Position numbers and translations under genes: made by a program | Notes under the pieces: model-generated | Told to the model about the DNA's origin: nothing | What the model saw: the letters and a program-made list of their open reading frames with translations, nothing else | Databases searched by the model: none | NCBI GenBank assembly: GCA_035560235.1 | Contig: DATMAG010000049.1 | Coordinates: 24,300 to 88,299 of the forward strand | Source: Blastocatellia bacterium | GTDB taxonomy: Bacteria > Acidobacteriota > Blastocatellia > RBC074 | Reading direction: 5' to 3' | Length of the DNA: 64,000 nucleotides | Part shown: piece by piece, positions 1,437-57,769 of the stretch | Position numbering within the stretch: position 1 is the stretch's first letter | Layout: each line of letters opens with the position of its first letter

Positions 1437-2718
1437 AGTTCGGTTTGGGTGATGGAGCGGACGAGGCTGGTGAGGCTGCTGGTTTTGCCTTCGATGCCTT
1501 CACATCAAAGGTGATGATGCCGCTGACCTGAACGGGTTTGCCTTCGAATGAGGCTGGTTGAAATGTCCATTTATGCGCTGCCGCGACTGCGAGGCCGCCG
1601 ATTTCTGCGCGTCCGCTGACCTGCCGGGCAAAGACCACATCGCCGCCAGGCCCGACCAGCACTTCAACCTTGACAAGCCCTGGCACCAGCTGACCGAACA
1701 TTGCGCCGCGTCCCGGCCCGACTGAAACTGCGCCGCCACTGTAAGTCACTCCTTTCGAGGCTGGGTCGTCAGGGTCACCTTTCTGGACAGGCGGGCGGTA
1801 AGGCGGGATTACTGCCACAGCCCGGCTGACCGGACGTCCGCCCTGAAGTTTCAGCAGCATCGGATCAGTCAGCAGCGAATCTTCATCCGGCGTGGTGGCA
1901 AATTCGCCAACGCGCACGGTCGGCGCGCCAAAATTGGCTGCAACCGGGCCTTTCGTCTGACTTGCCTGCTGAAAATAACCGAACGCCTGGCGCAGCGATT
2001 CCAGCGCCAGTTTGCGCTCCTCAGCGGCCTGTGATTCGTCTTCGGCAATCAGCGCGGCTTCAGTATGCAGCAGGTTTCTGACATTCAGCGCTTCAGCATA
2101 ATCGGACTTGACCTCAAGCGCGCGTTTCACCGCCTCAAGTCCCTGCGCGATGTGACCTCTGGCGCTGGCCAGATCCTTTTCCTTCAGCTTGTAAGTTACC
2201 TGCCCCTGCTTCAGTTCACCGCCCGCTGCAATCAGGTCGTGAACTTCGCGCCAGTGCGTCAGCGCGCTCCAGTAATCACAGTAGGCCCTGACCGAAAGTT
2301 TCTGTTCCGGCAGTTGCGCGCGCTGCTGAAACATCTCGCGCGCCTTCGCCTGCAGATCCAGGCGAAAAGCCGTCACCGCCGCCAGGCCGAGCGCTTCATC
2401 ATTCTGCGGTTCAAGTTTGATGGCGGCCTCAAACTTTTGCAGCGCCGGTTTGTACTTTTCAGCCCGGTAAAGTTTTTTGCCCTGATCAATCAGGTCCCGG
2501 GCAGTGAGTGTCGGTTTGTTCTGAGCGGGGGGTTGCGTGCCTGGCGAGGCAATTTTGCCGGATGGCTGCACTGTTCTGGCCGGGACTGTTTTCTTCGCTG
2601 GCGTTCCCGGCGCGGCTGAAGGTTTCTTCTCCTGTGCAGGCATGCTGGTGACAGAGAGCAGAATCAGCGACAGGCCGACGACTGAGCAGCCGACCGGAGA
2701 GTTAGATAATTTCTTCAT
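1435..2718 (-). CDS. TonB-family protein with signal peptide, Pro-rich linker, TPR repeats and a C-terminal TonB energy-transducer domain
   Basis: The N-terminus MKKLSNSPVGCSVVGLSLILLSV is hydrophobic. A proline-rich stretch and TPR-like helical repeats follow (AEKYKPALQKFEAAIKLEP...). The C-terminus ...VKVEVLVGPGGDVVFARQVSGRAEIGGLAVAAAHKWTFQPASFEGKPV... is typical of a TonB C-terminal domain. Confidence 0.65.
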   Translation of the reverse strand: MKKLSNSPVGCSVVGLSLILLSVTSMPAQEKKPSAAPGTPAKKTVPARTVQPSGKIASPGTQPPAQNKPTLTARDLIDQGKKLYRAEKYKPALQKFEAAIKLEPQNDEALGLAAVTAFRLDLQAKAREMFQQRAQLPEQKLSVRAYCDYWSALTHWREVHDLIAAGGELKQGQVTYKLKEKDLASARGHIAQGLEAVKRALEVKSDYAEALNVRNLLHTEAALIAEDESQAAEERKLALESLRQAFGYFQQASQTKGPVAANFGAPTVRVGEFATTPDEDSLLTDPMLLKLQGGRPVSRAVAVIPPYRPPVQKGDPDDPASKGVTYSGGAVSVGPGRGAMFGQLVPGLVKVEVLVGPGGDVVFARQVSGRAEIGGLAVAAAHKWTFQPASFEGKPVQVSGIITFDVKASKAKPAASPASSAPSPKPN

Positions 2719-4079: not shown

Positions 4080-6701
4080 ATGACGAGAAAGGCTGACTCT
4101 TCCAGAATGTTTGTCGTGCTGATGTTCATCAGCCTGCTGCTCAGCGCGCAGCGCGCTGCTCGTTCCGCCGGACAGGCAGCGCCGCCATCGCAGTCAGGCG
4201 TGGAATTCTTCGAGAAAAAAATTCGTCCGGTTCTCGCTGAAAGCTGCTACGGCTGCCACAGCGCGCAGGCGAAGAAACCAAAAGGCGGGCTGATGCTCGA
4301 TTCACAGGCCGCAATGCTCAGGGGCGGCGCATCAGGTCTGCCTGCCATCGTCCCCGGCGATATTGAAAAAAGCCTGCTCATCAAGGCGATTCGTTACAGC
4401 GATGCAAAGTTGCAGATGCCGCCCACAGGCAGACTGCCCGATCAGGTCATCAGGGATTTTGAGGAATGGATCAGAATGGGCGCGCCCGATCCGCGCAGGT
4501 CAGAACCTGCTGCCGCCGCTGCCTGGTCGCCTTACGATTACAACGAAGCAAAAAAATTCTGGTCATATCAGCCAGTCAAAGACTCGCCACCGCCGCAGGT
4601 CAGAAACACTGCCTGGGCCAGATCACCGATTGATCAGTTCATCCTCGCAAAGCTTGAAGAAAAAAATCTCAGGCCGGTTGGCGACGCCGACAAACGCACG
4701 CTGATTCGTCGCGCCACATTCGATCTGACCGGGCTGCCGCCGACGCCTGATGAAGTCGAAGCCTTTCTGAACGACAAATCACCGGACGCTTTTGAAAAGG
4801 TGGTTGACCGGCTGCTTGCTTCGCCTGCTTACGGCGAGAAATGGGGCCGTCACTGGCTCGATGTCGTGCGTTATGCCGACACCGCCGGAGACAATTCTGA
4901 TTACCCTGTCCCGGCGGCTTATCGCTATCGCAACTACGTCATCAAATCATTCAATCAGGACAAGCCATACGATCAGTTCATCCGCGAACAGATTGCCGGT
5001 GATCTGCTGCCCGCAAAGACTGAAGCTGAAAAATATGAAAGGATCATTGCCACGGGCTATCTGGCCGCTTCGCGCCGCTTCGGGTCGCGCAACAAGGAGA
5101 TGGATCTGACGATTGACGACACGATTGACAACCTCGGCAAAGCCTTTCTCGGCCTCAGCACCAGTTGCGCGCGTTGTCACGATCACAAGTTTGATCCGAT
5201 TCCGATGCGTGATTATTACGCCCTCTACGGCATCTTCAACAGTTCGCGCTATTCCTTCCCCGGCGCTGAAATTTATCCGCACCCGGCTGAAATGGTCGCG
5301 CTCGCATCAGGCAAAGAGGCCGAGAAGTTTTACAAGTACCAGAAGGAACTGAGCAGCCTCGATGACCGCAAGGAATTTCTGACCGCTGAAAAAGGCTTCG
5401 CCGCGCGCAATAAAAAACTGAAGGAACAACAGGCGCAGAACGCAGGCAGCGAAAACAAAGCCGCAAACGCGAACAACCAGAGCGGCAACCAGGCTGAAAC
5501 GAAAAAGCCCGAACCGCAAAAAGAACCTGCGAATGAACTGAAGCCTGCTGACTTTGATCGTGACGCCGACATCTGGGGCCGCGCCGGAAAGACCACGCGA
5601 ATGCCTGAAGAGGTTGAAGCTGAAATGAAGCAGGTCAGGGCGCGCGTTCTCGAACTGCACGCGGCTCCGGTCAAAGTTGACAAGGCTTATGCCGTGACTG
5701 AGGGTCTGCCCGCTAATGCCCGCATTCATCGCAAGGGCGAGCGCAACAACCTGGGCGATGAGGTGCAGCGCGGCTTCCTTACAATTCTCGGTGGTCAGAA
5801 AGTTCCCGCTGATTACAAAGGCAGCGGACGCGATCTGCTGGCCGGATGGATCGCTGATGCGAAAAATCCGCTGACCGCGCGCGTGATGGTCAATCGCATC
5901 TGGCAATATCATTTCGGCAAGGGCCTGGTGCAGACACCCAACGATTTCGGCACACGCGGCAAAGCGCCGACGCATCCTGAACTGCTCGATTACCTGGCCG
6001 CGCGCTTTATTGAATCAGGCTGGTCAGTCAAAAAGATGCACAAGCTGCTGATGCTTTCGCGCGTCTACCAGATGGCCAGCTCTGACGACGCGAAGAACGC
6101 TGCCATTGATGTCAGCAATGATTATTTGTGGCGCTTCAATCGCCGCCGCCTGCTTGCTGAAGAGTTCCGCGACGCGGTGCTTTTTGTCAGCGGCACGCTT
6201 GATCGCACGATGGGCGGCGAACATCCGTTTCCGCCCGAATCAACCTGGCATTTCACGCAGCACGAACAGTTTTTCGCCACTTATGAAACGAACCGCCGCA
6301 GCGTGTACATCATGCAGCAGCGGCTCAAAAAACATCCGTTCTTTGAAGTCTTCGACGGAGCCGATCAGAACTCAACGACTGACAAACGCAGCGCCAGCAC
6401 AACGCCGGTGCAGGCGCTCTACCTGATGAACAATCCGCTGATGCACGAACAGGCCGATCATTTCGCCGTGCGCGTCGGAATGGCCTTTGACACCGTGCGC
6501 GAGCGCATTGATTACGCCTTCCGCCTGGCTTACGGGCGCCCGGCCAGACCTGACGAAATCAAAGAGGCACAGGCTTATCTGCAACAGGTGCGGCAGGATT
6601 TGCAGGCCGTCAACACTCCGGCAGAACGCCTGAACCGCGCGGCGCTGGCCAGTTATTTACGTGTGGTGCTGAGCAGTAATGAGTTTCTGTATGTTGATTG
6701 A
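4080..6701 (+). CDS. PSCyt1/DUF1549/DUF1553 family protein (planctomycete cytochrome c domain protein)
   Basis: A signal peptide is followed by an N-terminal CYGCHS (CxxCH) motif. The conserved DUF1549 and DUF1553 regions follow (...WGRHWLDVVRYADTAG..., ...SCARCHDHKFDPIPMRDYY..., ...LTARVMVNRIWQYHFGKGLV...). The protein is 873 aa. Confidence 0.7.
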   Translation: MTRKADSSRMFVVLMFISLLLSAQRAARSAGQAAPPSQSGVEFFEKKIRPVLAESCYGCHSAQAKKPKGGLMLDSQAAMLRGGASGLPAIVPGDIEKSLLIKAIRYSDAKLQMPPTGRLPDQVIRDFEEWIRMGAPDPRRSEPAAAAAWSPYDYNEAKKFWSYQPVKDSPPPQVRNTAWARSPIDQFILAKLEEKNLRPVGDADKRTLIRRATFDLTGLPPTPDEVEAFLNDKSPDAFEKVVDRLLASPAYGEKWGRHWLDVVRYADTAGDNSDYPVPAAYRYRNYVIKSFNQDKPYDQFIREQIAGDLLPAKTEAEKYERIIATGYLAASRRFGSRNKEMDLTIDDTIDNLGKAFLGLSTSCARCHDHKFDPIPMRDYYALYGIFNSSRYSFPGAEIYPHPAEMVALASGKEAEKFYKYQKELSSLDDRKEFLTAEKGFAARNKKLKEQQAQNAGSENKAANANNQSGNQAETKKPEPQKEPANELKPADFDRDADIWGRAGKTTRMPEEVEAEMKQVRARVLELHAAPVKVDKAYAVTEGLPANARIHRKGERNNLGDEVQRGFLTILGGQKVPADYKGSGRDLLAGWIADAKNPLTARVMVNRIWQYHFGKGLVQTPNDFGTRGKAPTHPELLDYLAARFIESGWSVKKMHKLLMLSRVYQMASSDDAKNAAIDVSNDYLWRFNRRRLLAEEFRDAVLFVSGTLDRTMGGEHPFPPESTWHFTQHEQFFATYETNRRSVYIMQQRLKKHPFFEVFDGADQNSTTDKRSASTTPVQALYLMNNPLMHEQADHFAVRVGMAFDTVRERIDYAFRLAYGRPARPDEIKEAQAYLQQVRQDLQAVNTPAERLNRAALASYLRVVLSSNEFLYVD

Positions 6702-6707
6702 AGAATG

Positions 6708-6962
6708 GAACGCGGGTGAATCCGATGCGACTGAGCAATACAGATTCTGATCAGTCTTCATCCGTTGCATCAGTTTCATCGGCGTTCCATTTTCTGAAAA
6801 GCAATGGAACGCGGATTGAACGGATGCAACAGATAAACACAGATCAGCCCTGATCCGTCATATCAGTTTCATCCGTATTCCATTACCTTTCAGAAAATAG
6901 AACGCGGATGAAACTGATGATACAGATAAAAGACGGATCGGTGCTTATCCGTCGCATCCGTC
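6708..6962. repeat. three tandem palindromic units of about 85-90 bp (family A: AATGGAACGCG...CGCGTTCCATT)
   Basis: Each unit has terminal inverted repeats such as aatggaacgcgggtgaatccgatg ... catcagtttcatcggcgttccatt. Units start near 6712, 6803 and 6900. Related single copies lie at 37828-37912 and 54480-54605. Confidence 0.6.
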
Positions 6963-7001
6963 CAATCCGTGTTCCATTCAGCATTGATTGAGAGAGTCGC
7001 T

Positions 7002-8372
7002 ATGAAACCTGATAATCCATCCCGTCGCCAGATGCTTCGCTCGCTGTTCAGCGGTTCAATTCTGATGCCCGCTGTTTTCTCGCACCTGCTCACCGCCGAA
7101 GCGCGCGGCGAAGATAATCCGCTCGCGCCCAAAGCTCCGCACTTTCCGGCCAAGGCAAAAAGGGTGATCTTTATCTATCTGCCCGGCGGCTTCTCGCACG
7201 TTGATTCGTTCGATTACAAGCCGAAGCTGATTGATGATGCGAAAAACAATCGTCTGTACCAGGGCAAGCGCATCCTGCTGTCGCCGCTGTGGGAGTTCAA
7301 ACCGCGCGGCAAATCAGGCGCGATGATCAGCGATCTGTTTCCGCATATCGCTGAATGCGCCGACGACATCTGCCTCATCAATTCAATGCATGGCGATCAC
7401 AACGATCATTTTCAGGCGACGCTCGGCATTCACACCGGCTCGGTCACGTTCAAGCGTCCGAGCATCGGGTCGTGGGTCAGTTACGGCCTCGGCACTGAAA
7501 ATCAGAACCTGCCATCATTCGTCGTGCTTGCGCCGCAACTGCCTTACACCGGCGGACAAATCTGGGATTCAGATTTTCTGCCTGCCGTGCATCAGGGCGT
7601 GCGCGTCGTTGCGGGTGAAGAGCCTGTTCCGAATCTCAATCGCCGTTCTCCTTCGCCACAAATTCAGCAGGAAGAACTGAGCCTGCTTGAACGCTTCAAT
7701 CGGCGTCACCTGCAGACACACGCCGCCGATCCTGAGTTGTCGGCGCGCATCAAAACCTATGAAACGGCCTTCGGCATGCAGCGCGAAATGCCTGAGGTTT
7801 TAGATCTGTCGAAAGAGACTGACGCGACGCTGAAGCTGTACGGCCTCGAACGCGGGCAGACGAAAGGCTTCGGCTGGCAGTGCCTGGTCGCGCGCCGAAT
7901 GGTTGAACGCGGAGTGCGTTTCATCGAACTGATTGATGTCGGTGCCTCGAAAAACTGGGACGCGCACGGCGATATGAAGACTCACGAACCGCTCGCCCGC
8001 AACGTGGACAAAGCCACCGCCGGATTGCTGAAGGATCTGAAATCGCGTGGCCTGCTCAATGACACGCTCGTTGTCTTCACCACTGAATTTGGTCGCTCGC
8101 CCACGGCTGAAGGCGATTACGGGCGCGGCCATTTCAATACGGTCTTTTCATCGTGGCTCGCAGGCGGCGGCATCAAAAGCGGGATCGTCTACGGCAGGTC
8201 AGATGATTACGGGATGAAGGTTGCTGAGAATGAATGCCACGTGCATGACTTTCACGCGACGATTCTGCACTGCCTGGGCTTCGATCACACGCGGCTGACC
8301 TTCCGGCACGGCGGGCGCGATTTCAGGCTGACGGATGTGCACGGCAATGTGGTGAAGGCAATCCTCGCCTGA
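7002..8372 (+). CDS. DUF1501 family protein (sulfatase-like fold) with Tat signal
   Basis: A Tat motif SRRQMLRSLFSGSILMPAVF is present. Conserved DUF1501 regions include ...VIFIYLPGGFSHVDSFDYKP..., ...NSMHGDHNDHFQAT... and ...WDAHGD... The ORF starts at 6969, but I prefer the ATG at 7002. This is the usual partner of DUF1549/DUF1553 proteins. Confidence 0.7.
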   Translation: MKPDNPSRRQMLRSLFSGSILMPAVFSHLLTAEARGEDNPLAPKAPHFPAKAKRVIFIYLPGGFSHVDSFDYKPKLIDDAKNNRLYQGKRILLSPLWEFKPRGKSGAMISDLFPHIAECADDICLINSMHGDHNDHFQATLGIHTGSVTFKRPSIGSWVSYGLGTENQNLPSFVVLAPQLPYTGGQIWDSDFLPAVHQGVRVVAGEEPVPNLNRRSPSPQIQQEELSLLERFNRRHLQTHAADPELSARIKTYETAFGMQREMPEVLDLSKETDATLKLYGLERGQTKGFGWQCLVARRMVERGVRFIELIDVGASKNWDAHGDMKTHEPLARNVDKATAGLLKDLKSRGLLNDTLVVFTTEFGRSPTAEGDYGRGHFNTVFSSWLAGGGIKSGIVYGRSDDYGMKVAENECHVHDFHATILHCLGFDHTRLTFRHGGRDFRLTDVHGNVVKAILA

Positions 8373-31336: not shown

Positions 31337-31442
31337 AGTATTCACCATCAACCCGGCATCGCGGAGCGTCTGGAGTGCTGCGGCCTGGCGCAGCTTTGCA
31401 GAATCAAAGTGCAGACAATGTAATGAATCAGGTTTCTCTGAG

Positions 31443-31527
31443 AGACGGTGTTCGGAGTCCCAGCTTTAGCTGGCTGGCTCTCGATTCAGACCCGACCAGC
31501 TAAAGCTGGGACTCCGAACACCGTCTC
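31443..31527. repeat. family B palindromic element (GACGGTGTTCGGAGTCCCAGCTTTAGCTGG loop CCAGCTAAAGCTGGGACTCCGAACACCGTC)
   Basis: A perfect inverted repeat of about 32 bp with a roughly 22-nt loop. Further copies lie at 47264-47343 and 57386-57470. Confidence 0.65.
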
Positions 31528-31732
31528 TTCAGAAAGGAGATTTCAATCACTATCCCGCTCTGGCCTGCTACAATTCAGTCTCTGCAGGCAGCGGTATCGA
31601 ATGAATACCAAAGCTGCGCCAGGCCGCAGCACTCCAGACGCTCCGCGATTTCAGGACGTGCAGCATCAAACAACCAACATCCCGCGCGCCGGGCGGCATC
31701 AGGTGCGCGGCCTGATCCTTCAGAAAATACCC

Positions 31733-35521: not shown

Positions 35522-36874
35522 TCAGGCTTTCGGATATTCCCACGACCCGCGATATCTGCGGCTCAGATGCCTGTTGGCTTCAGCGTCACCGATGACTGTT
35601 TCCCTGGCGCCGTCCCATTCAATGCTGCGGCCCAGTTTGTAAGAGAGCATGCCAAGCAGGCTGACGTTCGTTGAGTAATGAATCTGTTCGATGTCGCTGA
35701 CGGGTTTGCGCCGGTTTCTGATCGCGTCAAGAAAGTCGGCCCACAGCTCTTTGATGTTCTGGTCATCAGGTTTGTGCAGTTGCGCGTCCTGATGAATGAT
35801 CTGACCTTTCGGATCGGTCGGATAAAACGTCCAGCCGTCGAGCCAGCCCATATGAAACGTGCCGTTCGTGCCGTAAAAGTAACATCCGACCGGCTGGCGC
35901 GGATCGCTCTTTTCGGCGTTGTTGGCGGCGAACTGCCGATGCTCCCAGCTCACCGTGAACTGCTCGAACTCAAAGACCGCGACCTGATGATCGGGCGCGT
36001 CGGTGGTCTGCGCTTCCTTTGTATTGACTGCAGGCCCCTTGATCGGGCGGCCTCCGGTCGAAAAGATTTTGCGCGGATACTTCTCACCCGTGATCCACAG
36101 AATCTGATCAATCCAGTGAATGCCCCAGTCGCCAAGCGTGCCGTTGGCATAATCCAGAAAGTTGCGGAAGCCTTTCGGGTGAATCTTTTTGTTGAATGGC
36201 CGCAGCGGCGCAGGCCCGCACCACATCTCCCAGTCCAGACCTTTCGGCGGCTCGGTGTTTTTCTCAGGCTGCTCCGGCCCGCCGCCGTAATGCACAAAAG
36301 CGCGCACCATTCCGATTTTGCCTAGTTTGCCTGACTGAATGAATTCGCGGCCCGAAAGGTTGTGCGGTGAAATGCGGCGATGCGTTCCGACCTGCACGAC
36401 CTTGCCGGTTGCGCGCGCCGCGTTGACCATCGCGCGGCCTTCCTTCACGGTGTGACCGATGGGCTTTTCAACGTAAACGTGCGCGCCCGCATTGACCGCC
36501 GCAATCATCATCAGCGAATGCCAGTGATCGGGCGTGCCGACGATGACGATTTCAGGTTTCTCTTTCTGCAACAGCTCGCGGTAATCGCGGTAAAGCTTCG
36601 GCTGGTCGCCCGACAGTTTCTGCACTTCAGCAACAGCGGGGTTCAACTGATTCTCGTCCACGTCGCACATCGCCACGACCTTTGACTGACCGGCGGCCAT
36701 CGCTTCGCGCAGGATGTTCATGCCCCACCAGCCTGTGCCAATCAGCGCCGTGCGATATTTCGTCGGCTGTGCGTTGAGAATCGGAATGCCGTAATCCAGC
36801 CCGGCAGCGAGTGATGAGACGGCAGTGGTTTTGATGAAGTTTCGACGATTCACGGCTGGCCTCCTTCTTGTCAT
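35522..36874 (-). CDS. Gfo/Idh/MocA-family NAD(P)-dependent oxidoreductase, Tat-exported
   Basis: The Tat signal is MTRRRPAVNRRNFIKTTAVSSLAAG. The Rossmann region reads ...TALIGTGWWGMNIL...VVAMCDVDENQL... and the family core reads ...KPEIVIVGTPDHWH.... Confidence 0.8.
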   Translation of the reverse strand: MTRRRPAVNRRNFIKTTAVSSLAAGLDYGIPILNAQPTKYRTALIGTGWWGMNILREAMAAGQSKVVAMCDVDENQLNPAVAEVQKLSGDQPKLYRDYRELLQKEKPEIVIVGTPDHWHSLMMIAAVNAGAHVYVEKPIGHTVKEGRAMVNAARATGKVVQVGTHRRISPHNLSGREFIQSGKLGKIGMVRAFVHYGGGPEQPEKNTEPPKGLDWEMWCGPAPLRPFNKKIHPKGFRNFLDYANGTLGDWGIHWIDQILWITGEKYPRKIFSTGGRPIKGPAVNTKEAQTTDAPDHQVAVFEFEQFTVSWEHRQFAANNAEKSDPRQPVGCYFYGTNGTFHMGWLDGWTFYPTDPKGQIIHQDAQLHKPDDQNIKELWADFLDAIRNRRKPVSDIEQIHYSTNVSLLGMLSYKLGRSIEWDGARETVIGDAEANRHLSRRYRGSWEYPKA

Positions 36875-36998
36875 AAGAAATGGACAGAATTGACAGGATG
36901 AGCAGGATAAATCGTCAGATCAGACTTCTGCTCTGCTCAGATTCTGTCGCTCCTGTAAATCCTGTCCGAATGTTTTCTGCGTTGATTCTGACTACTGG

Positions 36999-37808
36999 TT
37001 ACATCGGGAACATCTCACTGAGTTCACCCGGCGCAGGCTGACGCCCGTACTGGCACAGTTCAAAGGCTTCGGCGTATCTGATTGCCCGGCCCTGTTCTTC
37101 GCCGTAACGCGCCACGAGCAGCGCGCGGTATTTGTCGGCAATTTCAACGTCGCGATCTCTGAGCCAGTCGTGAATGAACTGTCGGCGCGCTTCATCGCCT
37201 TCAGGCACGCCGGGCAGATAACGACCGAGCCACGAATCACGATCAGCAAACTGCGACGGCATCGAGCAGATGCACTCAGACTTTTTCGCTGACACGTCAT
37301 CAATCCCGACCACGATGGCCGGATCGAAGGGATACGGCTTCTGAAACTGATCGGAGTAATAAAGAATGACCGGATTGCGCGGACACGGCGGCGTGTGCGT
37401 TTCAAAAAACGGCGCAGCCACCAGCACCGCCGCGTCTTCGACCAGCACGCCCGTGTAGCGATGATCGGGGTGATAATCACAAGGCCGCGGACACAGCACA
37501 ATATCGGCCTGCCAGGCGCGAATGAGCCGCGCAATCGTCCGGCGGTTTTCGAGCGTCGGCAGCAGTTCGCCATCGTGAATGTCAAGCACTTCGGTTTCGA
37601 TGCCCAGGATTTCAGCGCACCGCTCGACTTCAGCCCTGCGCCTGAGCGCGAGCGGCCCGCCTGCCATCGCAAAATGTCCGACATCGCCGTTGGTCGTGGC
37701 GACAAACTTGACCTTGTGTCCGGCAGCGGCCCACTTCGCCGCGACTCCGGCAGCCTTGAGTTCACAGTCATCAGGATGCGCGCCAAAAGCAATGATCTTT
37801 AGTTTCAC
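36999..37808 (-). CDS. PIG-L/LmbE-family N-acetylglucosaminyl deacetylase
   Basis: MKLKIIAFGAHPDDCELKAAGVAAKWAAAGHKVKFVATTNGDVGH... contains the PIG-L signature AHPDDxE and the His triad. The protein is 269 aa. Confidence 0.75.
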   Translation of the reverse strand: MKLKIIAFGAHPDDCELKAAGVAAKWAAAGHKVKFVATTNGDVGHFAMAGGPLALRRRAEVERCAEILGIETEVLDIHDGELLPTLENRRTIARLIRAWQADIVLCPRPCDYHPDHRYTGVLVEDAAVLVAAPFFETHTPPCPRNPVILYYSDQFQKPYPFDPAIVVGIDDVSAKKSECICSMPSQFADRDSWLGRYLPGVPEGDEARRQFIHDWLRDRDVEIADKYRALLVARYGEEQGRAIRYAEAFELCQYGRQPAPGELSEMFPM

Positions 37809-37827
37809 AGGTTCAGTGATAAGCGGT

Positions 37828-37912
37828 CGAATGGAACTCGGATGAAACGGATGTGACAGATCATCACAGATTATCCGTTTGAATCTGCGGCATCCGTCTC
37901 ATCCGTGTTCAA
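37828..37912. repeat. family A palindromic element (aatggaactcggatgaaacggatg ... catccgtctcatccgtgttcaat), single copy
   Basis: Shares its termini and internal ggatgaaac / catccg motifs with the 6708-6962 array. Confidence 0.55.
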
Positions 37913-37925
37913 TCTTCTGATTCGA

Positions 37926-39515
37926 TTACAGATTGTCTTTTGTCAGCACATTATCCACCAGCCGCCAGATGCCTCTGGTGTTTTCGTTGCGCAATTCAAC
38001 GGGCAACGCTTCCGGCGGGAAGTTCTGATACGACACCGGACGCGCGAAGCGTTTGATGGCATACGTGCCGACCGAAGTCGAACGCGCATCGGTCGTCGCC
38101 GGATACGGGCCGCCGTGCGTCATTGCGGGACAGACTTCAACGCCGGTCGGAAAGCCGTTGAAAACGAGCCGCCCGGCTTTGGTTTCGAGAATTGAAACCA
38201 GCCCGGCGTACTGCTGCAAATCTTCGGGCGTGGCGTGAATCGTTGCAGTCAGTGAACCGTGCAGGCTGCGGGCGATTTCTTCAAGCTGCTCGCGCGTGCC
38301 GCAACTGACGACGAGCGTTGACGGGCCGAAGACTTCTTCACTGAGTTGCGGACTGGCCAGAAACGTGGCGGCATCGGTCGCAAAGACTGTGGCCTGCGAT
38401 TGTGTCTTTGCAGGTTCGGGCGCAGTTTGTGCGCGCTGTGTCGCTACGCCTGAAGTTTCAGCAAAGCGGCTGACGCCTGATTCATAACTTTGCAGAATGC
38501 CCGGATGCAGCATCGTGGTCGGCGGCACTGCGGCAAACAGATTGTTGAGCCTGCCGATCAGTTGATCCATTCCGGCATCGGCCATTCCAAAGACCAGGCC
38601 GGGACAGGTGCAGAACTGACCTGCGCCGAGCGTGACTGAATTTTTCAGCCCTTCGGCAAAGGCTTCGCCACGCGACTGCAACGCGCCAGGCAGCACGAAG
38701 ACAGGATTGACGCTGCCCATTTCAGCGTAAACCGGAATCGGTTCAGGCCGCGCCGCCGCCGCATCGAACAAAGCCCGCCCGCCGCGCAGCGAACCGGTAA
38801 AGCCGACCGCCCTGATGGCCGGATGTTTGACGAGCGTCTGCCCGACTTCGACGCTGCCGCCGTGAACCATTGAAAAAACGCCTTCGGGCATGCCGGTTTC
38901 ATTCGCCGCTTTAATGACAGCGCGGGCGACCATTTCAGAAGTGCCGGGATGCGCGGGATGCGCCTTGACAACGACCGGGCATCCGGCAGCGAGCGCCGAA
39001 GCGGTGTCGCCGCCCGCGACTGAATAGGCAAAGGGAAAATTGCTCGCGCCAAAGACCGCGACCGGGCCAAGCGCAATCAGCATGCGCCGCAGATCGGGTT
39101 TCGGCAGCGGCTGACGATCAGCAATGGCGCGGTCAATCGTCGCTTCGACCCACGAACCTTCGCGGATTTCCGCCGCAAACAGACGCAACTGATTCATCGT
39201 GCGCCCGCGTTCGCCAGTCAGCCGGTCATAAGGCAGGCCGGTTTCAGCCTGGGCGCGATGAATCAGTTCATCGCCCTGCGCGAGCAGTTCATCCGCGATA
39301 GATTCAAGAAACGCGGCGCGCTCGTCGCTGCTCAGGCGACGGTAAGCATCGAACGCCTGAGCGGCGAGTTCGCAGGCGCGATTGATTTCGTCAGTCGTCG
39401 CTTCGTGAAAGACGGGGTCAAGTGACCGGCCAGCCGCCGGATCAAAAGCCTGAAAGGTTTGAGAACCTGATGATGAAGTTGAATTGCCGATGATCTGTTT
39501 GCCGTGTAGTTCCAT
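37926..39515 (-). CDS. NAD(P)-dependent aldehyde dehydrogenase, alpha-ketoglutarate-semialdehyde dehydrogenase-like
   Basis: The ALDH superfamily core reads ...GFTGSLRGGRALF..., ...PIPVYAEMGSVNPVFVL... and ...VTLGAGQFCTCPG... with a catalytic Cys context. The N-terminal region resembles KGSADH / 2,5-dioxovalerate dehydrogenases. Confidence 0.75.
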   Translation of the reverse strand: MELHGKQIIGNSTSSSGSQTFQAFDPAAGRSLDPVFHEATTDEINRACELAAQAFDAYRRLSSDERAAFLESIADELLAQGDELIHRAQAETGLPYDRLTGERGRTMNQLRLFAAEIREGSWVEATIDRAIADRQPLPKPDLRRMLIALGPVAVFGASNFPFAYSVAGGDTASALAAGCPVVVKAHPAHPGTSEMVARAVIKAANETGMPEGVFSMVHGGSVEVGQTLVKHPAIRAVGFTGSLRGGRALFDAAAARPEPIPVYAEMGSVNPVFVLPGALQSRGEAFAEGLKNSVTLGAGQFCTCPGLVFGMADAGMDQLIGRLNNLFAAVPPTTMLHPGILQSYESGVSRFAETSGVATQRAQTAPEPAKTQSQATVFATDAATFLASPQLSEEVFGPSTLVVSCGTREQLEEIARSLHGSLTATIHATPEDLQQYAGLVSILETKAGRLVFNGFPTGVEVCPAMTHGGPYPATTDARSTSVGTYAIKRFARPVSYQNFPPEALPVELRNENTRGIWRLVDNVLTKDNL

Positions 39516-39524
39516 AGTGATTGT

Positions 39525-39612
39525 CAGTTGTCCGTGGTCAGTTGTCAGTTGTTATCTGTGATGATGAAAAGTCTGAAAACAAATTACAACCGACCACCGA
39601 CAACTGACAACA
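39525..39612. repeat. family C hairpin (gtcagttgtccgtggtcagttgtcagttg ... caaccgaccaccgacaactgacaac) between the ALDH and inositol oxygenase genes
   Basis: A long inverted repeat is read directly. Confidence 0.5.
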
Positions 39613-39613
39613 A

Positions 39614-40459
39614 CTACCAGGCAATCTTTGGCGGGAAAAATTCAGCCACCAGTTCCTGATAGAACGGCCTCAATTCCTCAACATTCGGCTGCACAACTGA
39701 CTTGGTGTACAAGTCGTAAGGATTGAAGGCGCGTACCCATTTGAGCATTTCCCTGTCCTGTTCGTTCATCAGGTGCGTGTATTCGTTCTCGCGGTGAACC
39801 ACGTAAGCCGAATGATAGCGAATCATCCACAACGCTTCCTGCGGCAGATAATTTCTGACGACGTGATAAAGATATTCATCGTGGCCCCAGGTGAAATGCA
39901 CTTGATCAAGACCGCAGCCCGGTTCGTAAATCCCGCAGGGCGTGCTGAGCAGTGGATTCCGGCTGTCGGGATTGTCAGCAAAAAATTCTGAATAAACGAT
40001 CCTGTCTGAAAACGCGCAGCCGACCGGGTTGGTGTCACCGACCACGGCCCACTGCGGCTCGCCAAAGAGGCACAGCACCTTGCCGAGATCGTGAATCAGC
40101 CCGGTGAGAATGAACCAGCGCGGGTGTCCGTCGCGGCGAATGGCTTCGGCGGTCTGCAGCGCGTGCACGATCTGCGGCAGCGCCAGATCAGGGTCGCTGT
40201 CATCAACGACCTGATCGAGTTGTTCCATCGCCTCCCAGACGCTCATCTCAGCTTTTCGGAGCGGCGTGTACTCGGCTTTTTTTGCCAGCACGAAATCGAG
40301 CGTCTGCTGTGTGTGATGCTGTCGGTAAAGTTCACGGACACAGGCGCGGGCTTCGGCGGCGTAATCGCGGAACTGAGCTGGCTGTTTATCTTCATCAATG
40401 AGTGAGTGGGGAATGGGCGGGGCAACGGCAAACAAATCAGAACTGAGCGGATGTGACAT
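39614..40459 (-). CDS. myo-inositol oxygenase (MIOX, HD-domain di-iron oxygenase family)
   Basis: ...[29 protein letters not shown]..., ...[13 protein letters not shown]... and ...[43 protein letters not shown]...FFPPKIAW. The sequence is collinear with eukaryotic MIOX, including the C-terminal KIxW. I place the start at MSHPLSS (40459), within the longer 40654 ORF. Confidence 0.8.
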
Positions 40460-40599
40460 TAACCTGCATTGCTCCTTTGTGCGTGATCTCGGTTGAAAGT
40501 TCCGGCCTGACCGAATCAGCTGCTGGTCAAACCAGGCGGCGCGGCCATCATAATGCCGCCTTCTCAAAAAGTGAACAGTCGTCTGAAGAGCTGAGTCTG

Positions 40600-40688
40600 G
40601 CTGGAGCGCAGGCAGGCTGCCTGCCAGACTTCGATCAGGGGCTTCTTCCCGCAAGCCATGCAGGCAGGCTGCCTGCGCTCCAGCCAGA
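40600..40688. promoter_or_regulatory. 29-bp inverted repeat (ctggctggagcgcaggcaggctgcctgcc ... ggcaggcaggctgcctgcgctccagccag) in the divergent region between the inositol oxygenase and TonB-dependent receptor genes
   Basis: Read directly. The arms are separated by about 30 nt, and each arm is itself near-palindromic. Confidence 0.3.
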
Positions 40689-41025
40689 CAATGAAGTGCC
40701 CCTGGGCCGGATCTTGTTCATCCGGCCTGGTCGTGGTACTGTGCTGCCATCTTAAATACGGTAAGGTCATAACAAAGCACCAGCATTATCTTTCAGGAGA
40801 ATCAGCAGAGTCGTCATTCGAACTTTTCTGTTTTACACGCAGTTCCCCGACAGGGCCTGCTCTGCGCTGTAGCAGTTCACAGGATGAAAGGTAACGGCAG
40901 ACTTTTCCCCTGCCTTCAGTTCAGACTGTGAGCAGATAACCGCTCTTCAGTGCAGCCAGGACGCCGGTTTCGCTACCACAATCAACACTCATTCACCCCC
41001 TTCTCATTCAGGAAAGGAGTTACCC

Positions 41026-44000
41026 ATGTTGCGTCCACGTTACCCCCTCGCAGTTCTGGTCATCATCACGCTGCTGGCCTCGGCTGCCCTGTCACAAACC
41101 TTTCGTGGTGGCATCTCCGGCAGCATTACCGATCCGTCCGGCGCAGCTGTCCCCGGCGCATCCGTACAGCTTGTGCATGAAGGCACGGGGCTGACCCGCA
41201 ATCAGGAAACCACCAGCTCCGGCGATTTCACCTTTGCCGATCTGCCGCCCGGCTTCTACACGATCACCATTACCAAGGCCGGGTTCCAGACCCGGAAGAT
41301 GGAGAAGGTTGAAGTCGCCGTCGGCAAGGTCACCAGTCTGCCGGTCACGCTCGCCGTCGGACAAACGAGCGAAACCATCGAGGTGCAGGCTGCAGCCGCC
41401 ACGCTTGAAACTTCCAATTCCACGCTCAATGCTGTCGTCAATCAGCGCGCGGTGCAGGAGATTCCGCTCAACGGGCGCGACTTTCGCACGCTGCTTTACC
41501 TGACGCCGGGCTATAACCAGAGCGGTTCGATGAATGGCAATCGCGGCAATCAGAACAACTGGCAGATTGACGGCACCGACAACAATGATTTCTGGCACAA
41601 CGGCGAAGCCGTCAACCAGGGCAGCATTTCAGGCATCGCGGGCGTGCTGCTGCCGATTGAAGCGATTGATCAGTTCAATCAGCAGTCAGCCGGCGGCGGC
41701 GATTTCGGGCGCAATCCTGGTTCGCAGGTCAACGTCGCCCTGAAATCAGGCACGAACGAATTTCACGGCTCGGCCTACTACTTCAATCGCAACGAAGCCT
41801 TCGCGCTGCAATCGCCGTTCGTTCCGGTCGGAACTCCCGACAAGCTGCGCAACGAACAGGGCGGTTTTTCGCTCGGCGGCCCGATCATCAAAAACCGCCT
41901 CTTCTTTTTCCTCACCTATGAAAAGCAGAACTATGTGATTGCTGACCCGGTGCGCGGAACTGTCCCGTCCAACGCCTGGATTGATGTGGCCAAAGGCATC
42001 CTGCAAAAGTACAACGTGCCGGTGAATCCGGTCATGCTGGCCACTTTTCAGAATCTGTGGCCGTCACGCGGGGCTTCAGCTCCGGCAACAAAACTGAACT
42101 TCAATTCCGGCGATGATGACACCGGCCACAGCAACAACGGTGTCATCAAGCTCGATTACAACCTCAATTCAAAGCATACGCTCTCGGCGCGCGCGTTTCT
42201 CGGAACAGGTGAAGCGGCGCAGTTTGCCGGATCAGTTTACAAGGAATATTACCAGGTGGTGCCGAGTCGTCAGCATAACTTTGCCGTGATCTGGAACTCG
42301 ACCTGGACGCCGCGTCTTGTCAACCAGTTGCTGGCCGGAGTGAACTACTTCAACCAGACCTTTGACGATGCGGTTCACGCCGCCAATCCGGTTTCGTGGG
42401 GACTCAACACCGGCGTCACCAACCCGTCGAATTTCGGCGCGCCAACAATCAGCATCACCGGCTTCGACAACGGCATCGTCGGCGCGACTCCGCGTCTCGG
42501 ACGAATTGATGTGACCGGCCATCTGACCGACAACCTCTCGTACAACTTCGGCAGCCACGCGCTGAAACTCGGCGGTGAATTCCGGCGGGCGAAGCTCGAT
42601 GTGTTCTACTACCGCGAAGCGCGCGGGTCTTTCAGCTTCGACGGCAACCAGGGACCGTGGGCCAATGATCCGACGCTTGATCCGAAAGTTGATCCGCTCG
42701 GCGTTCAGAAAAAGGCCATCGCCGATTTTGTGGCGGGCATCATCGCCGCTGGCAGCGCCTCAATCGCCGTCGGTGATCCGCAGCGCGATTACTTCGTGAA
42801 TTCAGTTGATGGCTGGGCGCAGGACAACTGGCAGTACACGCCGCGTCTGAATATCAACTACGGCTTCCGCTACACCTACAACGGAAGGCTGCACGCGACG
42901 GGCAGCAAACCGATTGCGATCTTCAATCCGAAGTCATCAACCGGCCTCTCCATCGTAGGCAAGGACATTGAATCGCTCTATCCGGCTGACTACAACAACA
43001 TCGCGCCGCGTCTCGGTTTTGCCTATTCGCCAACGCGTGGCGGGAAGATGGTGATTCGCGGTCATTACGGCGTCTATTACGACATCGTCAATGGCAACCT
43101 GTTCATTGACAACCGCGCCGGCAGCGATTCCGGTCGCGGTGTCTCGCGCCAGCCGACCGGCCCGGCCCCGGTCTTCAGCGCCAGCAATCCCGGCACGGGA
43201 CCCAATGGCTCCGGCCCCTACACGATTCAGCAGGGAGTGCCCATCTTCGGTGGCGCGACGCCGCAGCCGCCGTTCGCAGTCTACACAGTGAATCAGAACC
43301 TGCGCTCGCCCTACGTGCAGAATTTCGGCGTGGATGTGCAGTATCAGGTGGCGAGAAACACGCTGCTGACGGTCGGTTATGTCGGCAACCAGGCGCGCAA
43401 GCTGGTGTACACGCACAACATCAATCAGATCAGGCCGAGCGTTGATCCGGCTGCCTCCTCGCGTCGCCCGTTCTTCACGCAGTTCCCGCAATTCCGCGGG
43501 ATCACTGAGATCGAGACGGCAGCCAATTCGAGCTACAACGCGCTTCAGCTTTCGCTGCGCACCTCAAGCTGGCGCAACCTCAGCGCCCAGTTCTCCTACA
43601 CGCTCGGACACGCGGAGGATGAAGTTTCAGCGCCGCGCAACGCCCGACCGACCGACAATTACAACCGCCGGTTCGACCGGGGCAATGCGGCCTTTGATTA
43701 CCGGCACGTCTTTTCAGGTTACGTGCTTTATGACGTGCCGCAGCTCGGCCACGCGCTGCCGCTGCTGACCAGAGGCTGGCAGCTCAACGCGTTCATCACG
43801 GCAGATTCCGGCACGCCGTTCACGGTCTTTGCCACCGGCGACTTCAGCCACACGCGCAACGGCGCTGACCGGGCGAATCAGACCGGCGATCCGTTCAGCG
43901 GAATCACGCAGCCGGCGACAGTCAATGGCCGCTACGTCAATGGCATTCGCTATTTCAACGGCTCGGCCTTTGTCAATCCGGCCCCCGGGACTTACGGGAC

Positions 44001-54479: not shown

Positions 54480-54605
54480 CCGCTCCGTGAAAGGAACGCA
54501 GCGATGTCAGTCAGTTCATCCCGGCAAGGACAGGTCAGGAATGGAACGCAGATGAAGCAGAGACAACGGATCGAAACAGACCCGCGATGACCCGCGTTCC
54601 ATTCT
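54480..54605. repeat. family A palindromic element (aatggaacgcagatgaagcag ... gacccgcgttccatt) plus a partial upstream copy
   Basis: Its termini match the 6708-6962 units. A partial copy (ggaacgcagcgatg) lies at 54490-54503. Confidence 0.5.
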
Positions 54606-57292: not shown

Positions 57293-57385
57293 CGTCTCCT
57301 CCAGTTGATGATGTTTCTGAAAAAAATTGCCGCGTTAAATCAAAGCAGCCGGAATCGGGACACCGCCTGCACTCTCATTTCTGGC

Positions 57386-57470
57386 GAGACGGTGTTCGGA
57401 GTTCCAGCTTCAGCTGGCTGGTCTGAGTTCACAATTCAGCCAGCTGAAGCTGGAACTCCGAACACCGTCC
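57386..57470. repeat. family B palindromic element (gacggtgttcggagttccagcttcagctgg ... ccagctgaagctggaactccgaacaccgtc)
   Basis: Third copy of the family. It lies in the roughly 480-bp leader between the PIG-L gene and the Nramp gene. Confidence 0.6.
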
Positions 57471-57769
57471 TGCAGCGTGACCTGATTCACTCAATGTCTC
57501 GATCCTGTGTGCCCTGATTTAATGAAAAGAATACCCGAACACTGCTGTGATAATGATGCCGCTACTTTAGGGCGCTCGCGGAGAGTCGTCAATGCCTGTG
57601 CCGGGGCGCGTCATTTTCCGTTGTTGAATCAGAGGCCGTGCGAGTTTGAGGACGATGATTTATGATGCCCGGGCTTTGAGTTCCATCTGACGCGGTTTCA
57701 AATCAATGATTCAATGCAGCAGCAAACGAACACGGCCATCAGGCCGCTGTTCATTTTCCAACACATCCG

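Follow-up and report, generated by a model that had tools for sequence, protein, structure and literature searches.

A palindromic triplet at the PSD1-DUF1501 junction

The 64-kb stretch of Blastocatellia DNA analysed here (contig DATMAG010000049.1; referred to throughout as the window) carries a PSCyt1/PSCyt2 (DUF1549)/PSD1 (DUF1553) gene, hereafter PSD1, followed on the same strand by a DUF1501 gene. Between the TGA stop codon of PSD1 (6699-6701) and the start of DUF1501, three palindromic units devoid of an open reading frame (ORF) are arranged head to tail across 6704-6978, with 11 nt of spacer in both gaps (Table 1). Each unit is approximately 85 bp long (about 95 bp with its flanks), starts with AATRGAACGCGG and finishes with CSGYRTTCCATT. 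Within each of the three units the two arms are 76-86% complementary, and an alignment of copies resolves each arm of unit 1 into AATGGAAC plus approximately four ACNGAT sub-sites. The period of the triplet is 94 according to Tandem Repeats Finder, and a repeat search returned three copies at 93-99 nt spacing. Pairwise identity between the three units is 64-76% ungapped and ~78% gapped. A tandem triplet with terminal inverted repeats at this position had been proposed in the initial annotation of the stretch, and both features are confirmed, as is the statement that this is not a clustered regularly interspaced short palindromic repeat (CRISPR) array: the units are too dissimilar, and the spacers measure 11 nt as opposed to the ~30-nt unique spacers of CRISPR.

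Table 1 Coordinates of the features described in the text. Positions refer to the window unless a locus of another genome (L number) is given.
Feature	Position	Strand	Support or remarks
PSCyt1/PSCyt2 (DUF1549)/PSD1 (DUF1553) gene, upstream of the triplet	4080-6701	+	873 aa; Pfam E 3.6e-90, 5.2e-84, 5.5e-17; ORF list
Direct repeat, left copy, TTGATTGA	6694-6701	+	8 nt; includes PSD1 stop codon
Unit 1, ORF-less CGGAT-type palindrome	6704-6791	.	nhmmer E 3.7e-22; RNA fold -38.9 kcal/mol, z -5.9
Spacer 1, TTCTGAAAAGC	6792-6802	.	flank consensus over 60 copies
Unit 2, ORF-less palindrome	6803-6884	.	nhmmer E 2e-21; RNA fold -24.3 (+) and -31.3 (-) kcal/mol
Spacer 2, ACCTTTCAGAA	6885-6895	.	flank consensus over 60 copies
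Unit 3, ORF-less palindrome	6896-6978	.	nhmmer E 4.7e-21; RNA fold
Direct repeat, right copy, TTGATTGA	6984-6991	+	followed by GAGAGAG (resembling a ribosome-binding site) and the DUF1501 ATG
DUF1501 gene, downstream of the triplet	7002-8372	+	456 aa; Pfam E 5.6e-136
Single full copy, minus-strand gene on either side	37830-37914	.	nhmmer E 9e-23; 11 nt past upstream stop
Shortened degenerate copy (64 nt), minus-strand gene on either side	54540-54603	.	nhmmer E 1e-4; 10 nt past upstream stop
GxxExxY gene, L181 (Flavobacteriales)			between CN_hydrolase gene and gene with Fer4_20/Pyr_redox_2 domains
GxxExxY gene, L184			within another PSCyt/PSD1-DUF1501 pair
GxxExxY gene, L187			downstream of gyrB, beside convergent mfd (TRCF) gene
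GxxExxY ORF, L179 (Blastocatellia metagenome-assembled genome)			whole hairpin on each side
Subfamily-B GxxExxY gene, L196 (Desulfovibrio/Nitratidesulfovibrio vulgaris)	1501-1968		
Subfamily-B GxxExxY gene, L198	527-997		
Subfamily-B GxxExxY gene, L199	1501-1965		

A profile built from four units and searched over the window with nhmmer recovered the triplet units at E ~1e-21, together with a single full copy and a shortened, degenerate one that retains the intact ends AATGGAACGC...GCGTTCCATT; no further significant copies were found in the 64 kb. Of the two related copies that had been annotated, the first therefore stands, and the second is real as a degenerate copy, the range of 54480-54605 given for it being too wide. 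Immediately adjoining the degenerate copy, a possible arm fragment (AAAGGAACGCAGCGATG...) occupies 54490-54539, which the nhmmer profile did not score as significant. As annotated, all copies are intergenic: the three sites lie between same-strand genes, 2-11 nt past the upstream stop codon. No tRNA or tmRNA gene was detected in the window.

The units are short, non-coding, dispersed and present in many copies, with five at three sites in the window and dozens in loci of the Blastocatellia metagenome-assembled genome (MAG) STL-ACI6 and in other phyla, and they possess terminal inverted repeats (arms AATRGAACNCGGAT... and ...ATCCGNGTTCYATT in the window). In these respects they correspond to miniature inverted-repeat transposable elements, or MITEs.

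Architecture of the element and its arrays

We aligned 60 full ORF-less copies from the window and other genomes. The arm consensus consists of AATRGAAC followed by four ACNGAT sub-sites spaced by 9, 9 and ~10 nt. The centre of the element is often GATC, and the positions between sub-sites vary freely. Outside the annotated ends, the flanks prolong the palindrome by another ~4-5 nt (CAGR|AAT...ATT|YCTG), hence the real unit measures ~95 nt rather than ~85 nt. In our reading, spacer 1 combines two outer flanks, that of unit 1 (TTCTG) and that of unit 2. With array spacers formed by two abutting outer flanks, spacer 2 should approximate the reverse complement of spacer 1, and the two indeed agree at 9 of 11 positions.

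Mean identity between units is 0.779 within arrays and 0.774 between sites, and the family is star-like and old. Since two units of one array resemble each other no more than units of separate sites do, a recent tandem duplication is ruled out as the origin of the triplet; we infer that arrays are either old or were built by repeated insertion beside an existing copy. Doublets and triplets make up ~40% of the Blastocatellia sites, far above the expectation for random insertion. Among 48 sites with an ORF on both sides, 33 lie between same-strand genes, 8 between convergent and 5 between divergent ones, and at same-strand sites the element starts at a median of ~10 nt past the upstream stop codon.

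The entire triplet is bracketed by two copies of TTGATTGA, the longest flank repeat among 44 sites inspected, and flank repeats of at least 8 nt occur in 0.4% of mismatched flank pairs used as a control. This pair may represent a target-site duplication. Matches of at least 7 of 8 positions are present in the flanks of 6 of 43 sites as compared with 5% in controls (permutation p ~0.03), at variable offsets. This modest excess fits target duplication, and is suggestive rather than conclusive. Deleting the insert and one copy of the repeat in silico yields the junction TGA-GAGAGAGTCGCT-ATG, similar to that of relatives in which nothing is inserted.

The same junction in related genomes

A comparison of 80 metagenomic relatives of the DUF1501 gene reveals a PSD1-DUF1501 gap of only ~10-40 nt in most, in line with the earlier description of this as a normally tightly coupled gene pair. 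The nearest relative, STL-ACI6 (DUF1501 98% identical), has no hairpin at the junction and instead contains a pair of MNT (NTP_transf_2) and HEPN genes. In L193 (90% identical) a GxxExxY gene directly follows the PSD1 stop codon and is itself followed by one degenerate hairpin, while the junction is rearranged in L191/L192 (92% identical). Cassettes comprising palindrome arms and a GxxExxY gene, described below, occupy the junction in L105/L114 and L184, and it is empty in the sister lineages L099, L100, L102, L103 and L107. When mapped on a neighbour-joining tree of DUF1501, occupied junctions fall into three separate clades (the window, L105/L114 and L184) with empty sisters, implying at least three independent occupations. 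The same junction has thus been occupied independently in several lineages with fast turnover, and the fact that the inserts differ among relatives marks it as a landing site rather than a conserved regulatory spacer.

Several other small modules were observed in these positions. The MNT-HEPN pair of STL-ACI6 (L190 3319-3979) is found in place of the triplet, at the position orthologous to window ~6702-6983. A second such pair in the same genome (L094 2111-2842; window ~37940) is absent from the window and lies 34 nt from the orthologue of the palindrome at 37830. Small selfish modules thus seem to share landing sites with the palindromes. At the PSD1-DUF1501 junction of L101 (~1325-1520), arms of ACGGAA with a 9-nt period show the same design built from a different sub-site; that of L104 (~1640-1835) contains a GGGTCAGTACCGCGAGCGGTAGCG palindrome, and that of L112 (~480-610) contains CACCAATCACCAG repeats.

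Palindrome arms flank a GxxExxY nuclease gene

In L105/L114, an ORF is located between the two arms at the PSD1-DUF1501 junction, and the same arm-ORF-arm layout occurs in unrelated contexts in L047 and L079. The encoded protein of ~130 aa belongs to the GxxExxY family (TIGR04256, E 1e-38 and 4e-41 for L105/L114 and L047; PF13366, PDDEXK_3), which has a PD-(D/E)XK nuclease fold. Four GxxExxY homologues were chosen arbitrarily, and in all four cases arms or complete hairpins were located directly at the ORF ends (L179, L181, L184 and L187 in Table 1 illustrate the range of genomic settings). Where the ends deviate from the consensus, both arms of a cassette share the variant: AGCAAC in L184 and GACCAC in L079 and L179. 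When searched with nhmmer, the profile of window units matches both flanks of the ORF in L179-L183, L187-L189, L105 and L114; in L184-L186 it matches a single flank, and in L193 the hairpin located downstream. It has no match in loci of other GxxExxY subfamilies or in gene-less loci. In every locus examined of subfamily A, the one with window-type arms, arms or whole hairpins flank the GxxExxY gene. Palindromes and cassettes therefore have their arms in common. The initial annotation contained neither this link to a nuclease cassette nor the distribution across phyla reported below.

A search of the 98 arm-motif loci listed (see below) for ends 0.25-5 kb apart did not find a transposase-bearing element bounded by the same ends. 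Among the end-pair candidates for such a conventional parent element, only the GxxExxY cassette of L047 is real, those of L024 and L088 being unrelated genes. The longer form with the same ends thus encodes a PD-(D/E)XK GxxExxY protein and not a known transposase. We also inspected ORFs near unpaired half-sites as other possible cargo, and rejected these as host-like genes (MsrA-like, ArsC-like, flavin-reductase-like) or spurious ORFs.

The GxxExxY family is very large, with at least 7,993 homologues at E <1e-10. Sequence search did not identify a solved structure, and no significant match to a defence-system or phage family was obtained in PADLOC or PHROGs. A phage origin was rejected on these insignificant matches and on the presence of just 2 GxxExxY loci in 2.9 million viral contigs. 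A survey of PD-(D/E)XK families gives the function of PDDEXK_3 as unknown and notes that it has been transferred between divisions multiple times (PMC3424549). Our search of the open literature returned only passing mentions of GxxExxY and no description of its association with arms. Arm sequences searched as text matched only unrelated primers, and the literature searched on Acidobacteria MITEs held nothing describing these arms.

A second subfamily has different arms of the same design

Subfamily B was reached via a distant GxxExxY protein from L195, and three further members were examined, from Desulfovibrio (Nitratidesulfovibrio) vulgaris, Methyloprofundus and one 6.9-Mb contig. Their arms differ in sequence (AACCGCGAAARGCGC... 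/ AACCGCGAAARGCGCTAAAG... and inverse), with the same inverted design and 9-nt period. The genes are located between the pglX-type and pglZ genes of an operon resembling bacteriophage exclusion (BREX) systems, or inside type I restriction-modification operons, and their stop and start codons overlap with those of the neighbours (ATGA). Here the ORF itself contains the arms, within its first and last codons, and they are translated as ..LTAKSAKGAKE.. at the N-terminus and ..NFRDFSAFRG.. at the C-terminus. Arm type hence co-varies with GxxExxY subfamily, and L004 and L049 have still other flanking repeat motifs.

In L004 (Flavobacteriaceae MAG; 900-1230 and 1640-1680), a ~47-nt repeat (AAAAAGAAAAAACTTTGCGCCTTAGCGTCTTTGTGGCAAAAAATTAT) accompanies a distant GxxExxY gene, with five copies before the gene and one after, in direct as opposed to inverted orientation. 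In L198 (994-1060), the adjacent DUF1016/YhcG gene opens with a similar periodic repeat, AACCACGAAAAACACGAAAAG, translated as MNHEKHEKKK. As we take DUF1016/YhcG to have a PD-(D/E)XK fold too, other small nuclease ORFs may use arms of this kind.

Distribution across genomes

The window region 35526-43079 is ~92% identical to contig JAXLQP010000001.1 of STL-ACI6, so the window derives from a related acidobacterium. A 24-nt arm motif, AATGGAACNCGGATKRRACNGATG, was scanned against one genome per species (596 Gb, with ~0.5 matches expected by chance as calculated), and occurs at 98 or more loci, which represent over 10 phyla. Among the loci listed, about a third belong to STL-ACI6, and others are from Flavobacterium isolates and Geomonas sp. 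Red32. Motif-bearing contigs of 0.28-4.3 Mb are attributed to Planctomycetota, Armatimonadetes, Chloroflexia, Spirosomataceae, Hydrogenedentes and Cloacimonadota; shorter MAG contigs, whose binning may be in error, are attributed to Ignavibacteria, Heliobacteriaceae, Saprospiraceae, a bacterium of the candidate phyla radiation (CPR) and a Methanosarcinaceae MAG. Many of the listed loci contain full palindromes, doublets or triplets, and isolated half-sites also occur. The element family is real and wider than this genome; the dispersed palindromic family that had been postulated, similar to MITEs or repetitive extragenic palindromic (REP) sequences, does have further copies, and these share a clear consensus.

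Hairpins show no signature of selection on RNA

It had been suggested that the folded RNA could serve as an attenuator, an mRNA-stability element or a processing site between the two cistrons. Each unit is indeed predicted to fold into one long hairpin (-24 to -39 kcal/mol, z -3.2 to -5.9 relative to shuffles). Across the 60 copies, pairing amounts to 82.8%, compared with 81.5 ± 0.4% following within-column shuffling. Because pairing barely exceeds that of shuffled copies, nearly all of the palindromy stems from both arms fitting one consensus. At variable positions ~40% of copies are unpaired, and double changes are in small excess (116 vs 94 ± 8 expected). For copies located between same-strand genes, the sense strand displays 85 G:T and 85 A:C mismatches. 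These copies show hardly any compensatory change beyond that due to composition and no sense-only tolerance of G:U pairs, both of which would be expected of a structured RNA.

The copy at 37830-37914 is orthologous to L094 1993-2077 of STL-ACI6, from which it differs at 10 of 85 positions; with flanks that are ~92% identical, the copy drifts at about the rate of its surroundings, which is roughly neutral. No terminator-like site, and hence no intrinsic terminator or attenuator, was detected on the plus strand between 6400 and 7300. The Rfam comparison that had been recommended gave no match at the gathering score for the whole window, and an E-value search of 6650-7050 returned only generic miRNA-hairpin matches far below threshold. 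Taken together, the near-absence of covariation, the lack of a G:U bias, the roughly neutral drift and the missing terminator disfavour a selected RNA element. The arms behave as would fit protein-binding sites rather than a selected helix, and the hairpin data fit protein-recognised inverted repeats that are now drifting. A dedicated regulatory role in the PSD1/DUF1501 operon is therefore unlikely. Stems of ~40 bp are plausible substrates of ribonuclease III (RNase III), and cleavage of the long stems as a side effect is plausible.

Origin of the triplet

Our preferred reading is that the triplet probably represents a nuclease-associated selfish cassette in three abutting copies, each ORF-less and either a relic or non-autonomous, sitting at a favoured landing site. 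A complete cassette comprises a left arm, the ~130-aa GxxExxY gene and a right arm that is the inverted left arm, and would settle just past stop codons between co-transcribed genes. The 85-bp palindromes would be the collapsed form, with left arm joined directly to right, or else non-autonomous copies. The GxxExxY nuclease would recognise the arrays of sub-repeats and move or maintain the element, and arrays would arise through insertion beside existing copies or old duplication. Within the PSD1/DUF1501 operon, the triplet would persist as a relic that is tolerated, and the one effect it is likely to have would be incidental, such as RNase III cutting of the polycistronic RNA.

A number of points weigh against this reading. 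Both the mobility of the element and the role of GxxExxY as its mover are inferred. There is no GxxExxY gene in the window, nor in ~34 palindrome-rich STL-ACI6 loci of up to 8 kb each, which leaves the source enzyme in this genome unproven. In L179 and L193 the gene lies beside whole hairpins, not between split arms, and so the ORF could be an invader of pre-existing palindromes. The evidence for target-site duplication is weak, given the p value and the variable offsets. The hairpin tests were made with ORF-less copies, possibly decaying relics, and say little about active cassettes. Some of the MAG taxonomy may reflect mis-binning, for example of the 7.7-kb Methanosarcinaceae contig. Finally, Flavobacterium chungnamense (L025 4070-4840) contains one arm only (AATGGAACGCGGATGAAACGGATG...) with no inverted partner, repeated seven times in direct tandem units of 109-119 nt, an arrangement that the cassette model leaves unexplained.

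We consider as a close rival, to which we assign a low probability, that the palindromes are primary and are homing targets: a free-standing GxxExxY nuclease would cut them and be copied into or beside them by repair via arm homology, the triplet being three targets that were never invaded. The presence of ORFs both between split arms and beside whole hairpins is readily accommodated by such a process, homing endonucleases with a PD-(D/E)XK fold and a comparable size exist (I-Ssp6803I, for example), the cassettes lie between same-orientation genes as free-standing homing-endonuclease genes do, and in Blastocatellia loci the palindromes far outnumber ORF-bearing copies. However, it leaves the spread of the palindromes themselves to hundreds of sites and across phyla unexplained, and it fits poorly with the L105/L114 junction cassette, whose empty sister sites have no palindrome. 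In subfamily B, moreover, the arms are inside the coding sequence, and thus ORF and arms form one unit there. Binding of the ACNGAT sites by a conserved host protein (nucleoid-associated, gyrase-like or a regulator) in chromosome organisation, akin to REP sequences and their clusters, the bacterial interspersed mosaic elements (BIMEs), with GxxExxY as a passenger, appears improbable. It would account for conserved sub-sites among freely variable positions, for constraint that is equal on both strands and for the wide distribution, but no candidate host protein is common to all phyla involved, individual sites turn over quickly, and different GxxExxY subfamilies have different arm types, an indication that the cassette's own protein is involved.

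We rate just as low the view that the hairpins are a selected RNA element tuning the ratio of PSD1 to DUF1501 protein. The strength of the predicted stems, their suitability for RNase III and their place directly past stop codons, typical of 3' stabilisers and REP-like elements, speak for it. Set against these are the pairing and mismatch statistics, the roughly neutral drift of the orthologous copy, the lack of a U-tract terminator on the plus strand, the Rfam noise, and orthologous junctions that are mostly empty, the closest relative having a different insert. Least probable of all is an integron origin, with the triplet a cluster of attC sites from ORF-less cassettes lacking an integrase. 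In its favour, the units resemble attC sites in being imperfect palindromes in the range of 60-140 nt, in having AAC...GTT close to their ends and in forming arrays with or without small ORFs; toxin-antitoxin-like pairs such as MNT-HEPN are found nearby. The attC core sites R''/R' follow RYYYAAC and GTTRRRY around a non-conserved interior. By our reading the ends of the present element (TGGAAC/GTTCCA, or ATGGAAC/GTTCCAT in full) do not conform to these, and its interior is a conserved array of sub-repeats. The copies are also scattered over operon junctions genome-wide instead of forming one array, and have no strand-specific features.

Preferring the cassette reading for the triplet, we more tentatively put forward a wider proposal, which we judge possible but not yet likely. 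GxxExxY cassettes and ORF-less palindromes may together constitute an undescribed class of mobile element that crosses phyla, in which the sole protein, a ~130-aa PD-(D/E)XK nuclease, would read subfamily-specific arm codes (CGGAT, GCGAAAA and others) and drive insertion past stop codons in operons, those of BREX and type I restriction-modification systems among them. If true, this would account for the function of a very large family of 'hypothetical proteins', and for many intergenic palindromes of Acidobacteriota, Bacteroidota, Planctomycetota, Chloroflexota and other phyla that so far lack an explanation. GxxExxY (TIGR04256, PF13366) has no assigned function, and linking it to a defined partner on the DNA makes for a testable system; this partner is the inverted array of sub-sites with 9-nt periodicity, which also exists in abundance as gene-less palindromes. 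The cassette link allows annotators to recognise a cross-phylum class of intergenic palindromes, and flags PSD1-DUF1501, like other operon junctions of its kind, as a place where selfish cassettes land. The triplet should accordingly not be taken as a regulatory device of the PSD1/DUF1501 operon.

Comparison with known systems

A close likeness is with REP sequences and REPINs, which are associated with the gene of a REP-associated tyrosine transposase (RAYT, TnpA_REP). These too are short extragenic palindromes in many copies, mostly just past gene ends, that form abutting clusters (BIMEs), as the doublets and triplets common here do. In both cases an enzyme gene is flanked by inverted repeat copies, and the type of repeat tracks the enzyme subfamily. 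However, the flanked gene encodes a TIGR04256/PF13366 protein with a PD-(D/E)XK fold here and not an HUH/Y1 transposase, and one and the same arm sequence recurs in many phyla, in contrast to the lineage-specific REP families. REPs are 20-40 nt in length with a GTAG or CGTC tag at one end, the tag being defined in PMC3733652; the present units are ~85-95 bp, consist of 9-nt periodic sub-sites with AATRGAAC ends, and have no such tag.

With bacterial MITEs (Correia/NEMIS, ERIC, Nezha) the family shares its non-coding nature, a length below 100-150 bp, terminal inverted repeats, intergenic dispersal, and longer relatives with the same ends that carry a gene. When 1.4 million bacterial MITEs were clustered at 95% identity in one census, none of the bacterial clusters extended over more than one phylum (PMC11602168); that threshold is much stricter than the cross-phylum comparison made here. 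Unlike in MITEs, the parent element has no recognised transposase, and target-site duplications are at best weakly detectable.

The ORF-containing intervening sequences of 23S rRNA (Leptospira type) likewise have a small ORF within inverted repeats, giving a long transcript stem and potential RNase III substrate. Their proteins belong to a different family, PF05635, and they interrupt rRNA, in contrast to the mRNA operons occupied here. Free-standing homing-endonuclease genes also provide a small nuclease ORF between same-orientation genes, often overlapping their stop and start codons, but need no inverted-repeat arms and leave no ORF-less palindromes behind, and the insertion sites of the present element are many and unrelated. 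A further likeness to them is a patchy distribution that fits horizontal transfer (PMC3424549).

A second palindromic family in the window

The window contains another palindromic family that is unrelated to the first, GAGACGGTGTTCGGAGTYCCAGCTTYAGCTGGCTGG...CCAGCTRAAGCTGGRACTCCGAACACCGTC, at 57354-57519 and 31425-31538. The copies form near-perfect stems (-81 and -94 kcal/mol), and the differences between them are matched on both arms. The family also occurs in the STL-ACI6 loci L055 and L039, at ~80-84% identity.

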